DNA of 64,000 nt, from the NCBI GenBank assembly GCA_965277265.1, contig CBDICF010000002.1, positions 274,449-338,448 of the forward strand. Direction: 5' to 3'. Positions 3,509 to 19,050 of this stretch are shown here, piece after piece. Position numbers and translations under genes: made by a program. Below the pieces are notes generated by a model. It saw only the letters and a list, made by a program, of their open reading frames with translations, did no database searches and was not told where the DNA came from. The number at the start of each line of letters is the position of its first letter. Positions within the stretch are counted from its first letter, which is position 1. This stretch comes from Edaphobacter sp. Lineage in GTDB: Bacteria; Acidobacteriota; Terriglobia; Terriglobales; Acidobacteriaceae.

Positions 3509-3561
3509 TGGCATGAAAAATGCTCACGATCCAGGGTATCCATTTTGGTTCCGTAATTGCA
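3509..3561 (+). promoter_or_regulatory. Two candidate sigma-54 (-24/-12) promoters upstream of the PEP-CTERM gene
   Basis: TGGCATGAAAAATGCT (3509-3524) and TGGTTCCGTAATTGCA (3546-3561), both GG-N10-GC. Confidence 0.4.
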
Positions 3562-3599
3562 GTAACCGAATCGAGCGACATCTCGCTCAAGGTAAAATT

Positions 3600-4364
3600 A
3601 TGCGCCGCCTGGTGTACTTTCTGTCTCTGGTTCTCGTCGTAAGCGCGTCCGCCACATGCGTCAACGCATCGACGGATTGCGAGCGGTGGTTTGCCTCATA
3701 TCGCCGGGACCTGGTGCACTCCCAGCAGGTCAAGCGAATAGAGGCGGCCAGACGCCGGGCCCGCTTGTATGCACGACGCAAGCTGGCAGGGTACGTCAAG
3801 CCGAAGCCGAAGCCTGCGCCTCTCCTGTTTCCCGTGGTCCATCATCCCACGATGAACCCGCGCGAAGCACGTCGGCGTGTCGATCTCGCCTGTGGTGTGC
3901 TGCCGGAGAGCTCTGAAGGGCAGCCTCTAATCTCCGAAGAACAGCCGGCTGAGTTCACCGCCGATGTGCTGCCGCCGGATGAACTTGCTCTGCTTCCCGG
4001 TTTCGACAGCCCTGGAACTCTCTTGCCTCAGGACAACACTCCGGCAGCCCCGGTCTTCTCCTCCGAGGCTCCCCCGAGCTTTTCTGGAGGTGGTGTGCCC
4101 GTCTACATCCCTCCTTTCACTACGCCGGTGGGCACAGCTCCTGGCAGCAGCAACGGCGGGGGCACGATACCCCCCGTGGGAACGCCGCCGGGCGGGGGCA
4201 GCCCGGTGGGAACTTCTCCGGTGGATACGGCTCCGGTCGATACGCCGCCGGTTGTGATTCCGCCGCCGGTCCTGGCCCCTGTTCCGGAGCCGGGCAGCAT
4301 CCTTTTTATGCTGACCGGGCTGGCGGGTGCAGCGGGTGTGGTTCGGCGCAGGTTCGCAGCGTAG
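3600..4364 (+). CDS. PEP-CTERM surface protein with Pro-rich linker
   Basis: N-terminal signal peptide; C-terminal VPEPGSILFMLTGLAGAAGVVRRRFAA (PEP, TM helix, Arg cluster). Confidence 0.85.
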   Translation: MRRLVYFLSLVLVVSASATCVNASTDCERWFASYRRDLVHSQQVKRIEAARRRARLYARRKLAGYVKPKPKPAPLLFPVVHHPTMNPREARRRVDLACGVLPESSEGQPLISEEQPAEFTADVLPPDELALLPGFDSPGTLLPQDNTPAAPVFSSEAPPSFSGGGVPVYIPPFTTPVGTAPGSSNGGGTIPPVGTPPGGGSPVGTSPVDTAPVDTPPVVIPPPVLAPVPEPGSILFMLTGLAGAAGVVRRRFAA

Positions 4365-4458
4365 TTTCCAGTCCGCTCCGTGCGATTCGTCCTGCTTTTT
4401 CTAGCGGTGGTGAAGCAGACGTTTTGCTGGGGATTTGCACGAAAACGATGTGCAGCGC

Positions 4459-4564
4459 GTGGCCCTTTTGTGGTGAAGTTGTGGCATACGTGTGGCATGT
4501 CGTGGACGTTTGTGACCCATGTTTCGGCGGGGCCAAAGTACGCCAACTTTTTCTATCTTATTTT
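4459..4564 (+). repeat. Dispersed intergenic element, copy 1 (phased GTGG array plus conserved tail)
   Basis: GTGG at 4459, 4470, 4481, 4492, 4502 and GTGA at 4512; tail TTTCGGCGG-N8-TACGCCA-N12-TTATTT recurs with identical spacing at 18278-18319 (minus strand). Confidence 0.55.
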
Positions 4565-4605
4565 CAGAACGCCGTGGACCGGTTCGTCGCCAGGCACTCT
4601 CTTCT

Positions 4606-5337
4606 TTATAGGGAGACCTGTATCGCCTCTCCGATGAGCAGAATGACCGGAGCCGGTCCGACCGCACCGTCCTGCAGCTCGCTCAGGGTTGTAGCGTATA
4701 CCTGCTGGTCGGGAGCTGTGGCTTTGGAGACAGCGACGCAGGGGGTTTCGGGCGCGATGCCGGACGCGATCAGATCGTCCGCGAGCAGGCGGAATCTGCG
4801 GCCGGGCATGTAGATCACCAGGGTCGAGTCTTCGGGGAACGCTCCGGCCCACTTCGGTTGCAGTTCGACCTTGCCTGCGGCATGGTGGGCGGTAGCCAGA
4901 ATCAGCCTGGAGGCTGCGCTGCGGTCGGTCAAGGGCGTCTGCAAGGCCGCCGCAACGGCGAAGGCAGCGGTGATTCCGGGTACGATCTCGAAGGTTACCC
5001 CGGCGGCGCGCAGTGCGGCCATCTCTTCTCCTGCGCGACCAAAGACCAGCGGATCGCCGGACTTGAGACGCAGCACCGAGCGGCCGGACTGTGCGGCGTC
5101 GATCATGAGCACATGAATCTCCGCCTGCGTGATGCGGGGCTGGCCGCAACGCTTGCCCACCGGAGTGATGGCGGCTCCGGGGTGGGCCAGGGCAAGAATC
5201 TCGTCAGACACCAGATCGTCCGGGAGGATGACATCGGCGGTCTCCAGCAGCCGAAGCGCACGGAGCGTGAGCAGACCGGGGTCTCCCGGACCGGCTCCCA
5301 CCAGGTAGACGGTGCCCGGTTTGGCCGCGTGATTCAC
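4606..5337 (-). CDS. cobA: Uroporphyrinogen-III C-methyltransferase
   Basis: VYLVGAGPGDPGLLTLRA, RLKSGDPLVFGRAGEE, IVPGITAA tetrapyrrole methylase motifs. Confidence 0.92.
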   Translation of the reverse strand: MNHAAKPGTVYLVGAGPGDPGLLTLRALRLLETADVILPDDLVSDEILALAHPGAAITPVGKRCGQPRITQAEIHVLMIDAAQSGRSVLRLKSGDPLVFGRAGEEMAALRAAGVTFEIVPGITAAFAVAAALQTPLTDRSAASRLILATAHHAAGKVELQPKWAGAFPEDSTLVIYMPGRRFRLLADDLIASGIAPETPCVAVSKATAPDQQVYATTLSELQDGAVGPAPVILLIGEAIQVSL

Positions 5338-15884: not shown

Positions 15885-17114
15885 TCAAACCGAACCGGTG
15901 AGTGCGCTGGTCGGGGCGAACAGATCGAGCTGGGTTGTGGTCGGGGATGTCTCTTTTGTGTAAAGCGATGGCAGATGATCGACAGTCACGAGGTAGGGCA
16001 GGGCACTCTTGATGCGGACGTGCAGCTTGCGTAGATCGTCCAGCAGCAGGGAATGGTAGCGGCGGATGCTGAGGATGCGTTCGACGTTGCGGTAGCCGAT
16101 GCCGGGGACGCGAAGCAGTGCTTCCCGCGGTGCGGCGTTGACGTCGATGGGGAAGAACTCCGGATGAGACTTCGCCCATGTCGTCTTCGGATCTTCCGTG
16201 AGCGAGAGGTCCGGCGCTTCGGGCGTGGTGAGCTCGCCTGCCGTGTATCCGTAGAAGCGCATCAGCCAATCGGACTGGTAGAGGCGATGTTCGCGCATCA
16301 TGGGAGCGGCTTTCAGAGGAAGGCGAGCGTCCGCATCGGGGTAAGGGCTGAAGCCGGTGTAGTAGATGCGGCGAAGCTTGTACCGGCCGTAGAGGCGGGT
16401 GGCGGTCGAAAGGATCTGTCTATCGCTGGCTGGCGTAGCTCCGACGACCATCTGGGTCGACTGTCCGGCGGCGGCGAACTTCGGCGTGGAGGGAAGCCTG
16501 CGGCGGTCTTCGTCGGCCTCATCTTTGCGAACCGCAATCTGCGACATGGTGGATTCGATAATGTTGGACTTCTTCTCCGGGGCTAGCTGGACGAGGTCCT
16601 GCTGGGTGGGGAGCTCGATATTGGCGCTGAGGCGGTCGGCATAGAGGCCGGCCTGTTCGATCAGGAGCGGACTGGCTCCGGGGATGGCTTTCAGGTGGAT
16701 GTAGCCGCCGAATCTGTGCACCTGCCGGAGGGTTTGTGCGACCTTGATGAGCTGCTCCATCGTGTAGTCGGGCGACTGGATGATGCCGGAGGAGAGGAAG
16801 AGGCCTTCGATGTAGTTGCGCTTATAAAAGTTCAGCGTGAGGGTGATGACCTCTTCGGGGCTGAAGCGCGCCCGCTGAATGTCCGACGAGATGCGGTTGA
16901 CGCAGAAGACGCAGTCGTAGGTGCAGAAGTTCGTAAGGAGGATTTTGAGCAGCGAGACGCAGCGGCCGTCCGGCGTATAGCTGTGGCATATGCCAATGCC
17001 GTCGGAGTGGCCGACGCCTTCGCCATTGCCCGCGCGCTTCGCTCCCGATGAGGCGCAGGAGGCGTCGTATTTGGCGGCATCGGCGAGTATCTCGAGTTTT
17101 TGCTGGACATTCAT
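15885..17114 (-). CDS. Putative DNA modification/repair radical SAM protein (TIGR03916-like) with C-terminal HhH
   Basis: KYDASCASSG, CTYDCVFC (CxxxCxxC), YIEGLFLSSG, YIHLKAIPG, REHRLYQSDWLMRFYG, LLRVPGIG HhH. Confidence 0.9.
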   Translation of the reverse strand: MNVQQKLEILADAAKYDASCASSGAKRAGNGEGVGHSDGIGICHSYTPDGRCVSLLKILLTNFCTYDCVFCVNRISSDIQRARFSPEEVITLTLNFYKRNYIEGLFLSSGIIQSPDYTMEQLIKVAQTLRQVHRFGGYIHLKAIPGASPLLIEQAGLYADRLSANIELPTQQDLVQLAPEKKSNIIESTMSQIAVRKDEADEDRRRLPSTPKFAAAGQSTQMVVGATPASDRQILSTATRLYGRYKLRRIYYTGFSPYPDADARLPLKAAPMMREHRLYQSDWLMRFYGYTAGELTTPEAPDLSLTEDPKTTWAKSHPEFFPIDVNAAPREALLRVPGIGYRNVERILSIRRYHSLLLDDLRKLHVRIKSALPYLVTVDHLPSLYTKETSPTTTQLDLFAPTSALTGSV

Positions 17115-17236
17115 TCAGGAGAGAGATGACCGATGTTGATGTTTGTATTGTAGCGAATAGAAGGCGAAGCAGGGCGGAGGGTAATAGTTCGATTTCAGCG
17201 CTTCAACATCTAAAGGATGTGAGCAACTACGGTGGA

Positions 17237-18283
17237 ATGAACGACGGTGGGTTAAAGACGCTTCGCCTCTCCGTCCTGGACCAGTCGCCGGTGCCCGAGG
17301 GCAGTACCCCGGGACAAGCGTTGCAGAACTCGATCGAACTGGCAAAGCACGTCGACCGGCTGGGTTACACCCGCTTCTGGATGTCGGAGCACCATGCGAT
17401 GGACACGCTCGCCTGTACCGCTCCGGAGATTATGCTGGCGCGGATCGGAGCGGAGACCAGCCGAATTCGCATCGGGTCGGGCGGCATTATGCTCCCGCAC
17501 TACGCCTCGTTCAAAGTGGCGGAGGTGTTTCGAACTCTCCATGCGCTTTATCCGGGCAGGGTCGATCTGGGGATCGGGCGCGCTCCCGGAGGCGGACCGG
17601 TGGAGTCGCTGGCCCTGCTGCGGAATCGTAAGGCCCACATGCCCGACGACTTCCCGGATCAGGTGAACGAACTGCTCGCGTTCCTGGGGGATGGGCTCTC
17701 GGCGGAGCATCGTTTTCCGGCAGGCCATCCGTTTTCCGGGTTGCGGGTCTCGCCCCGGATGCCTGGCGCCCCCGATGTCTGGATGCTGGGATCGAGTATG
17801 TGGAGCTCGGCGGCAGCGGTGGAATTTGGCCTGCCGTATGCATTCGCACACTTCTTCAGCCCGCTGCATACACGCGCGGCCATCGAGACCTACCGAAGGA
17901 GCTTTCGGGGCGGCCCGTATCGCGTAGAGCCTGAGGCGACCGTAGCGGTGGGGGTAATCTGCGCGGAGACCCAGGAGGAGGCGCAGTTTCTTTACTCCAG
18001 CGTCCGGCTGCTGCAGCGGAGAATTCGCCAGAACGACCGGCGACCGGTTGCGTCGCCGGAGCAGGCGGAACGGGAGCTTCGTCTGCTGGGAGACGTGCCG
18101 TTGGAGGAAGGGGAGTGGCCTCGCTACTTCGTTGGCACACCCTCGCTGGTACGGGAGCAGCTATCCCAGATGGCCTCTGAGCTGGGAATCGGGGAGCTGG
18201 TGGTGAATACGATCGCCTGGGATCAGGCTGCGCGGCTGAGAAGCTATGAGCTGCTGGCGGAGGAGTTCGGCCTGCAGAAATAA
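17237..18283 (+). CDS. Luciferase-like (LLM class) flavin-dependent monooxygenase
   Basis: LSVLDQSP, RFWMSEHH, IRIGSGGIMLPHY, GRVDLGIGRAPG. Confidence 0.9.
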   Translation: MNDGGLKTLRLSVLDQSPVPEGSTPGQALQNSIELAKHVDRLGYTRFWMSEHHAMDTLACTAPEIMLARIGAETSRIRIGSGGIMLPHYASFKVAEVFRTLHALYPGRVDLGIGRAPGGGPVESLALLRNRKAHMPDDFPDQVNELLAFLGDGLSAEHRFPAGHPFSGLRVSPRMPGAPDVWMLGSSMWSSAAAVEFGLPYAFAHFFSPLHTRAAIETYRRSFRGGPYRVEPEATVAVGVICAETQEEAQFLYSSVRLLQRRIRQNDRRPVASPEQAERELRLLGDVPLEEGEWPRYFVGTPSLVREQLSQMASELGIGELVVNTIAWDQAARLRSYELLAEEFGLQK

Positions 18284-18381
18284 AGTCCGGATATGTGGCG
18301 TAGTCTTCAGCCGCCGAAAAGTGACTGTTCGGGCACGAGCTTTGCAACGCATTACACCACAACGTATCCATAAATTTCCAT
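18278..18381 (-). repeat. Dispersed intergenic element, copy 2 (degenerate)
   Basis: Minus strand TTTCGGCGG (18319-18311) N8 TACGCCA (18302-18296) N12 TTATTT (18283-18278); upstream ATGG/ATGG/GTGG at 10-11 nt spacing. Confidence 0.5.
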
Positions 18382-18486
18382 GTTGTGCCGCCCGAAAATA
18401 TCAAAATCCCCCAACAAAGACGGCTCTCTCACCACAGCCTGCCACGGCGCAAAAAAAGCTGTGCATCGTGACGGCGTGCCCGATCC

Positions 18487-19050
18487 CTACTGCCCGGCAA
18501 CGCTGGAGGGGAAGATGCGTATGTCCTCCAGGTTGCGGTAGCGCTCGGCGTAGTCCATCCCGTATCCCACGACGAACTGATTCGGTATGGGGAAGCCCAC
18601 ATAGTCCGCATCGATCGGTACCAGGCGGCGTTCGGGCTTGTCGAGACAGGTGGCGATCTTCAGCGAGGCCGGCTTGTGCTGCAGCATCATGTCGCGCAGG
18701 TAGCTCAGCGTAAGTCCAGTGTCCAGAATGTCTTCCACCATAATCACATGCTGGCCTTCGATGGGATTATCGATATCCTTGATGAGCTTCACGGCCCCGG
18801 ACGATACCCGGGCGCGGCCGTAGCTGGAGACAGAAACGAAGTCGAAGGTGGCATCGACGGTGATCGAGCGGGCCAGGTCGGAGAGGAAGATCGCCGCGCC
18901 TTTCAGCACCCCGATCAGGATGATGCTCCGGCCTTCGTAGTCGGCCGAGATCTGCCGGCCAATGGCCCTGACCCTTGCGGCGAGCTGGTCTCTGGAGAGA
19001 AGAATGTCCATGGATGAGGCAGGTGGAAAGGCAGGCGTGCTGGTCGGCAT
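18487..19050 (-). CDS. hpt: Hypoxanthine phosphoribosyltransferase
   Basis: GVLKGA, VSSYG, VEDILDTGLTL PRPP motif, FVVGYGMDY. Confidence 0.95.
   Translation of the reverse strand: MPTSTPAFPPASSMDILLSRDQLAARVRAIGRQISADYEGRSIILIGVLKGAAIFLSDLARSITVDATFDFVSVSSYGRARVSSGAVKLIKDIDNPIEGQHVIMVEDILDTGLTLSYLRDMMLQHKPASLKIATCLDKPERRLVPIDADYVGFPIPNQFVVGYGMDYAERYRNLEDIRIFPSSVAGQ

Follow-up and report, generated by a model that had tools for sequence, protein, structure and literature searches.

To our knowledge, nearly all well-studied dispersed repeats of bacteria (REP, ERIC, Correia, and MITEs) are palindromic. ERIC of Enterobacteria and bcr1 of the Bacillus cereus group are clade-restricted intergenic repeats of 125-155 bp that occur in tens to hundreds of copies; both are imperfect palindromes whose transcripts are believed to fold. 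An 11-bp period also characterizes direct repeats in parC of plasmid R1, where five-plus-five of them are bound by ParR, and at the origin of pMV158, where three are bound by RepB. The low-affinity DnaA arrays of E. coli oriC have the same period, composed of a 9-mer plus 2 bp. G-rich words alternating with T-tracts in helical phase constitute a classical sign of directionally bending DNA. REP/BIME sequences of Enterobacteria and Pseudomonas (including REPINs with their RAYT) occur between genes in high copy number, at the 3' ends of transcription units; they are hairpin-forming palindromes of 20-40 bp whose presence as a population depends on a trans-acting factor. DNA gyrase is bound by BIME-2 elements (PMC6379681). 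The gyrase motif of E. coli extends over 130 bp with a phased 10-bp variation in G/C, taken to show that DNA bendability contributes to gyrase binding, and sites of gyrase cleavage are overrepresented downstream of transcription units and within BIME-2 (PMC6379681).

The element described here occurs twice in the window, i.e., the whole 64-kb stretch of DNA that was analyzed (C2:274449-338448 of genome G000, which has 4.13 Mb in three contigs and 60.4% G+C). A first-pass annotation had flagged a run of six GTG(G/A) units followed by a three-block tail, and had reported the tail a second time on the opposite strand. A re-reading of the window places GTGG at 4459, 4470, 4481, 4492, and 4502 and GTGA at 4512, with the claimed spacings of 11, 11, 11, 10, and 10 nt; the tail follows as claimed, with TTTCGGCGG at 4522-4530, N8, TACGCCA at 4539-4545, N12, and TTATTT at 4558-4563. 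Its three blocks are found again, with identical 8- and 12-nt spacers, on the minus strand at 18278-18319. This match is better than chance: the 16-base pattern TTTCGGCGG-N8-TACGCCA has two exact matches in the window, whereas dinucleotide-preserving shuffles predict 0.02. The flagged stretch is real; the element itself is longer, spanning 4396-4565 (+) and ~18277-18458 (-), and pairwise alignment carries the similarity between the two copies (A and B) some 60 nt further upstream than had been flagged. Convergent genes flank both copies, as had been stated and as the checked gene positions show. The features are listed below; R1 denotes a sequence-only covariance model of the element.

4396..4565, +: copy A, whole element of ~170 nt (nhmmer match C2:278833-279038; R1 match C2:278845-279014, i.e., window 4397-4566)
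4396..4400, +: 5' T-run of copy A (family consensus columns 1-6)
4406..4412, +: GGTGGTG box of copy A, corresponding to the family block GTGGTG (window sequence, family consensus)
4422..4432, +: TTTTGCTGGGG box of copy A, corresponding to the family block TTTTTGC-GGG (window sequence, family consensus)
4459..4515, +: phased array of copy A, six GTG(G/A) units (window sequence; TGG-TGG distances in the family)
4522..4530, +: TTTCGGCGG of copy A (match to copy B)
4539..4545, +: TACGCCA of copy A, the near-invariant heptamer TRCGCCA of the family (information content near 2 bits per column)
4558..4565, +: TTATTTTC, the A/T-rich 3' end block of copy A, always 12 nt past TRCGCCA
~18277..18458, -: copy B, whole element (nhmmer match C2:292706-292913; R1 match C2:292725-292887)
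18296..18319, -: TTTCGGCGG-N8-TACGCCA of copy B (exact pattern match)
18334..18386, -: phased array of copy B, more degenerate than that of copy A (ATGG, ATGG, TGTGG, GCGTTG, GCTCG)
3513-4364, +: left neighbor of copy A, gene for a PEP-CTERM protein
4606-5337, -: right neighbor of copy A, TP_methylase (tetrapyrrole-methylase-family) gene
17048-18283, +: left neighbor of copy B, luciferase-like monooxygenase gene
18487-19050, -: right neighbor of copy B, phosphoribosyltransferase gene

The TAA stop of the monooxygenase gene (18281-18283) falls inside the TTATTT end block of copy B, and copy B has an orthologous copy in the relative G004 (locus L176). The gene upstream of copy A (3513-4364, +) ends with a PEP-CTERM sorting signal; the proline-rich C-terminal tail of its product is highly variable among relatives.

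A mismatch-tolerant scan for the tail, followed by three rounds of nhmmer to convergence, recovered 92 copies in G000, 49 on one strand and 43 on the other; A and B are the only ones in the window. Together with at least 45-62 copies in five sister species, this establishes the proposed dispersed, unannotated, and non-coding family, and further copies are far from absent. A literature search found no description of the family, which is apparently undescribed so far. Median pairwise identity among the 92 copies is 53% (maximum 86%), and conservation is therefore by blocks. The consensus of ~170 nt opens with TTTTTT, 4-5 nt, GTGGTG, ~8 nt, TTTTTGC-GGG, TTT, and ~20 nt; five units follow (cGTGGT, tTGTGc or GTGGTG, TGTGGAC/TG, TGCGTGG, and AAcGTGG); the 3' part consists of ~20 variable nt, GAAA, TRCGCCA, exactly 12 nt, and TTTATTTT. 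In most copies TRCGCCA is flanked by a short GAAA...TTTC inverted repeat. Two of the originally described components hold for copy A and less so for the family. The TTTCGGCGG block is common to copies A and B but weakly conserved elsewhere, and is located in the variable segment. The phased GTGR array is present in copy A, but family-wide the units are looser (YGTGG or TGTGC, spaced by 9-12 nt), and strict chains are rare even among the family's own members: at least five GTGR units at 10-11 nt occur in a row twice in the whole genome, copy A being one of the cases. The real family signature is TRCGCCA-N12-TTATTT, not TTTCGGCGG; it is contained in 53 of the 92 copies and has zero matches elsewhere in the genome. 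A simple tandem repeat was considered and rejected, as Tandem Repeats Finder reports no array.

The helical phasing claimed for the flagged stretch is borne out across the family, where TGG recurs with a period of ~10.7 bp over four turns. Distances between TGG words are 3- to 6.6-fold enriched at 9-12, 21-22, 32-33, and 42-44 nt, and distances from TGG to TTT peak at 5-7, 15, 26-28, and 37 nt, i.e., with a half-turn offset. As the two sets of peaks lie half a turn apart, G-rich words and T-tracts are predicted to alternate on opposite faces of the helix over ~100 bp. The two strands of the element differ strongly in base composition (G 34%, T 31%, A 19%, C 17%), and its G+C content of 51% is below the 60.4% of the genome. 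One subfamily, located elsewhere in the genome, has an A-run (GAAAAA) in place of the 5' T-run, a swap that would be neutral for duplex DNA and would not be so for RNA. At least five direct repeats with an 11-bp period on one face, close to a distinct site and an A/T-rich stretch, liken the element to iteron and centromere arrays, whose helical period (at least three direct repeats) is present family-wide; by analogy, the iteron-like architecture may be suited to cooperative, DNA-bending protein binding. Iteron and centromere arrays differ in that each replicon has a single one, next to the gene for its binding protein, whereas the present element has 92 copies on the chromosome, none with a linked gene, and no similarity to plasmid or phage records. 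The 11-nt period could also be a leftover of tandem-duplication ancestry, with no requirement for helical phase. A plasmid or phage origin of the element was rejected, its similarity to any phage or plasmid record being zero.

Copies lie at the 3' ends of genes. According to crude gene calls (ORF length and codon-position G+C; ~86% coding), 34 of the 92 copies lie between convergent, 12 between divergent, and 46 between tandem genes, and many begin 0-20 nt from a stop codon. When the 82 assignable copies are compared with all spacers, convergent spacers contain 31 copies against ~15 expected (p = 5e-5), and divergent spacers 9 against 15-20. The location relative to gene ends that had been noted for copies A and B thus extends to the family, with a twofold enrichment between convergent genes. 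Orientation in tandem contexts (26 vs 20) does not follow flanking transcription. A relation to the replichores, also raised in the first-pass annotation, did not emerge: orientation has no clear bias along the chromosome and a weak association with local GC skew.

The link to Acidobacteriaceae drawn in the first-pass annotation proved right, but the range is far narrower, a Tunturiibacter/Edaphobacter sub-clade of one genus, i.e., a few Acidobacteria of tundra soil. In searches of relatives' genomes with R1, five genomes of the same genus have at least 45-62 copies each, two (G006 and G012) have 2-3 degenerate, truncated relics, and the remaining members of the genus, four genomes of 95-99% completeness among them, have none. 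Zero copies were found by the same search in 12 genomes of a neighboring family. Across 200 genomes from 116 genera of the family itself there are isolated single matches only; the two strongest both lie near the start of a contig, and one comes from a genome flagged for 6% contamination. When the genomes of 185,579 species were scanned with a strict pattern, the matches were Tunturiibacter psychrotolerans, T. lichenicola, T. empetritectus, T. gelidiferens, Granulicella sp. S190, and Edaphobacter or Acidobacteriaceae MAGs, the sole outlier being one MAG labelled Actinomycetes. With respect to dnaA, four positive genomes are closest to G000 (90-92% identity), while negative and relic genomes have 80-87% and the positive G011 84%; the distribution is, because of this order, mostly clade-wise, with losses. 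Presence among species is near all-or-none (at least 45-92 copies, or 0-3 relics), which is consistent with reliance on a factor that acts in trans and is open to loss. In G006 and G012 the family looks like one decaying after the loss of its maintaining agent. The relic at G006 locus L007 occupies the site orthologous to G000 C2:345967-346133, and a second relic locus is L008 of G012.

Both gain and retention are evident when orthologous sites are compared. The site of copy A is without the element in G004, G010, G011, G007, G002, and G006, and in the first four of these the convergent genes are ~24-45 nt apart; copy A was thus gained in the G000 lineage, unless there were several losses, the less parsimonious account. 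Among 20 elements of G004 and G010 with both flanks syntenic in G000, 14 have a recognizable G000 element at the site and six have an empty G000 site; of 28 assignable orthologous pairs, 23 share the same orientation. In this comparison, in which coding flanks are 70-80% identical, high-information columns are 81% identical between orthologous copies, equal to the value for unrelated copies, and low-information columns 35% identical, where unrelated copies reach 32%. Spacers have thus gone to saturation, and blocks have been preserved. Among 39 orthologous pairs of closer relationship, drawn from named genomes, block columns change 2-2.6 times slower than spacer columns: the differing fractions of block and spacer columns are 0.16 and 0.41 at 83% flank identity, 0.12 and 0.31 at 88%, and 0.095 and 0.18 at 92% (Fisher p of 1e-4 to 1e-22). 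Column registration in these pairs is off by at most three columns, which blurs the contrast between blocks and spacers and cannot create it. Slower evolution of the blocks could partly reflect ascertainment, as only recognizable copies are compared, or alternatively turnover or gene conversion. Blocks kept while spacers change is the pattern predicted by function of the blocks in place, and not by neutral selfish decay; it suggests that the blocks are under purifying selection at orthologous sites.

This pattern of constraint makes a protein-binding array on one DNA face, as the first-pass annotation had proposed, the leading reading, with which the data are consistent. From it we infer protein binding, DNA wrapping, and what the complex does. 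A copied-and-retained DNA element, docking and bending around a putative clade-specific protein, is the explanation that we tentatively prefer. The family would have spread by copying and would now be kept by the host as a cis-acting DNA element. A sequence-specific, probably clade-specific putative protein would read the YGTGG units, which recur with each helical turn and hence would be presented on one face of the duplex, and would bind head-to-tail and cooperatively along ~100 bp. T-tracts half a turn out of phase would let the DNA bend one way and wrap around the protein, and the TRCGCCA-N12-TTTATTT module might anchor or nucleate the complex. At the ends of transcription units, especially convergent ones, the bound and bent complex could form a topological or transcriptional barrier in either orientation; alternatively, it could be a topoisomerase entry site. 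On the other hand, it is unusual for a host function to be limited to a section of one genus while sister species can dispense with it. In a more speculative and rather doubtful version, the 45-92 elements per genome would be docking sites of a clade-specific chromosome-organizing system, in which the protein polymerizes on one face and wraps ~170 bp where transcription units end, chiefly convergent ones, to form an orientation-independent topological or transcriptional insulator, sites and protein being gained and lost together. If true, such joint gain and loss would explain both the all-or-none distribution and the relics in sister species.

The main rival is a purely selfish non-autonomous element of REPIN or MITE type, which does nothing for the host and whose blocks are the binding and cleavage sites of an enzyme that is single-copy or has since been lost. 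As a full account we consider it unlikely; it is not exclusive with docking, because the family has clearly spread by copying. The earlier proposal of non-autonomous mobility is partly supported. Filled and empty sites exist, as expected of mobile elements, with copy A's site empty in all six relatives, and eight copies in G000 constitute a young subfamily at ~80-86% mutual identity, a similarity that could only have come from copying; some of these eight adjoin a second repeat family. Patchiness within the genus and decayed relics in G006 and G012 are what loss of a mobilizing enzyme would leave, the copies occupy "safe" intergenic spacers downstream of genes, next to another repeat family, and REPIN-RAYT systems are reported to be vertically inherited and long-lived. 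Other observations speak against mobility of this kind. Neither terminal inverted repeats nor a target-site duplication was found: the ends (T-run...TTTATTTTC) are direct rather than inverted, and the bases beyond the T-runs mismatch between the two ends of the element. TRCGCCA-N12-TTATTT is confined to the 92 elements, and nowhere in the genome does it bracket a gene or a longer unit, so that no full-length parent with the same ends was recovered. The short palindromic unit of REP/REPIN is likewise missing, the element having direct repeats, no consensus pairing, and fold z-scores near 0, and the cognate Y1 (RAYT) transposase (PF01797) is absent from G000 and G011, although relatives free of the element have it. 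No transposase partner or other enzyme gene lies between paired copies (the segments between them encode pyrF, a lipoprotein, an enoyl-CoA hydratase, and nusB) or adjoins any copy. Orthologous copies keep their blocks while their spacers saturate, which neutral decay does not predict. Exact insertion junctions are not definable in the genomes compared, as relatives of G000 are at most 75% identical in flanks other than those at dnaA and their spacers are unalignable, and the named Tunturiibacter loci give 44 filled pairs and zero clean empty sites.

Readings of the element as an RNA are close to excluded. A structured small RNA or riboswitch-like family would fit the 170-nt size and the intergenic position, and a structured RNA had been among the first suggestions; it is now scarcely credible. 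Rfam has no match in the whole window at the gathering threshold and none on copy A even at E <= 1, and RNAalifold on 79 full-length copies gives no consensus structure on either strand. Fold z-scores of copy A against dinucleotide shuffles are 0.17 and 0.63 for the two strands, region-wise values on the forward strand range from -0.03 to -0.6, and mean z by region is -0.4 to -0.6. The proposed GGCG/CGCC pairing shows no covariation, with 51% of cells paired, as in shuffles, and zero compensatory changes; orientation is moreover random with respect to neighboring genes. A transcription-termination module acting on RNA or RNA polymerase is improbable. The RNA of the reverse strand would be C/A-rich and unstructured, with CCAC every ~11 nt like a Rho loading (rut) site, whereas the G/U-rich forward reading would act via pausing. 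In its favor, the reverse strand has 34% C and 17% G, the array region barely folds (~-2.7 kcal/mol), the copies lie right at stop codons and occur preferentially between convergent genes, and hairpin-plus-T-run terminators are scarce in G000 (11-16% of gene ends in a crude scan of ends with a spacer of at least 60 nt, at a threshold of -10 kcal/mol), which suggests reliance on other termination modes. However, the rut-like strand faces the upstream gene in just 20 of 46 tandem cases, while a polar Rho site should be oriented; the pause motif G-10/Y-1/G+1 is 1.3-fold enriched on the forward strand; and conservation as fixed blocks that include an invariant heptamer is not usual for rut sites. 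Low-affinity DnaA-box arrays that titrate or oligomerize DnaA, like datA, DARS, or oriC, are very unlikely as well. The reverse-strand units do resemble, if weakly, the CCACA half of the DnaA box TTATCCACA (e.g., TTAAGCACA and CGTCCACA), the elements are ~8-fold enriched in relaxed boxes with no more than one mismatch, and G000, G004, and G010 each have one copy in the dnaA-dnaN spacer, while G018 has one 1.3 kb from dnaA. Against this, the 92 copies contain no perfect box and seven one-mismatch boxes, and thus no box clusters; the dnaA-proximal copy is missing from the element-positive G002 and G011; nothing in DnaA biology corresponds to TRCGCCA or the other blocks; and DnaA is universal, while the family is confined to a sub-clade.

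Several further identities were tried and rejected. Sigma-70, sigma-54, and ECF promoter readings of the 3' module misfit in their spacings as judged by eye, and 54 of the 92 copies face a convergent gene end. A pause-site array (G-10/Y-1/G+1) is disfavored by its enrichment of just 1.3-fold on the forward strand. An intrinsic terminator at the 5' T-run would lack the preceding hairpin in most copies.

Comparison with the known systems yields both likeness and difference. Like REP/BIME, the family occurs between genes in high copy number, where transcription units end, its copies are retained at orthologous sites (REP/BIME being reported as vertically inherited and long-lived), and its repeat population seems to depend on a trans-acting factor; unlike the REP palindromes, the element is 170 bp long and strand-asymmetric, with direct phased units and no palindrome, and unlike the REPIN-RAYT pairing, G000 is without a Y1/RAYT gene. 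With ERIC and bcr1 it shares clade restriction and orthologous retention mixed with gain, while differing from them in its lack of a fold and its phased direct units. Its phasing and its placement downstream of transcription units would fit the gyrase motif, whose ~10-bp phasing extends over more than 100 bp. The gyrase motif is, however, degenerate and two-armed around a central cleavage site, whereas the element consists of fixed blocks in a single long periodic arm, with an invariant heptamer toward one end, and it is confined to a sub-clade, while gyrase is universal.

Three traits distinguish the family: helically phased direct units, an invariant anchor motif, and blocks measurably under what appears to be purifying selection. 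If a binding protein exists, the family could provide a tractable case of DNA-level marking of transcription-unit ends, as Tunturiibacter isolates are culturable, each genome offers 45-92 defined sites, and the element-free sister species constitute natural knock-outs. Should the element be selfish instead, it would represent a non-palindromic counterpart of REPIN-RAYT-type persistence, with a putative enzyme. In either case, it bears on the persistence of non-autonomous repeats in compact genomes. Among genes beside the copies, no small DNA-binding gene recurs and no gene for a cognate binding protein adjoins the array; the neighbors are unrelated housekeeping genes, which we take to include atpC, rplU, nusB, and queF-like and iscA-like genes. 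The cognate factor may instead be encoded at a distance from the copies.

Some minor observations concern the surroundings of the copies. The dnaA-proximal copy of G000 (C3:2268961-2269151) starts 38 nt past the dnaA stop codon, in a spacer of ~790 nt that is followed by what is presumably dnaN; this spacer also holds the DnaA-box-like words ATATCCACT and CTTTCCACA. Ten sister genomes carry 1-5 Y1 (IS200/RAYT) transposase domains each, and G000 and G011 carry zero. Just past the TTTATTTTC end of several copies lies a second dispersed repeat with a consensus of approximately AACCGCAGGTCCCTTCGCTGCGCTGCGGGATGACAAACAAAAGG..CAGGCAAC(T/G)GCAA, found in G000 on C3 near 1811705, 2127889, 2601909, 2705584, 1697180, and 1463230.
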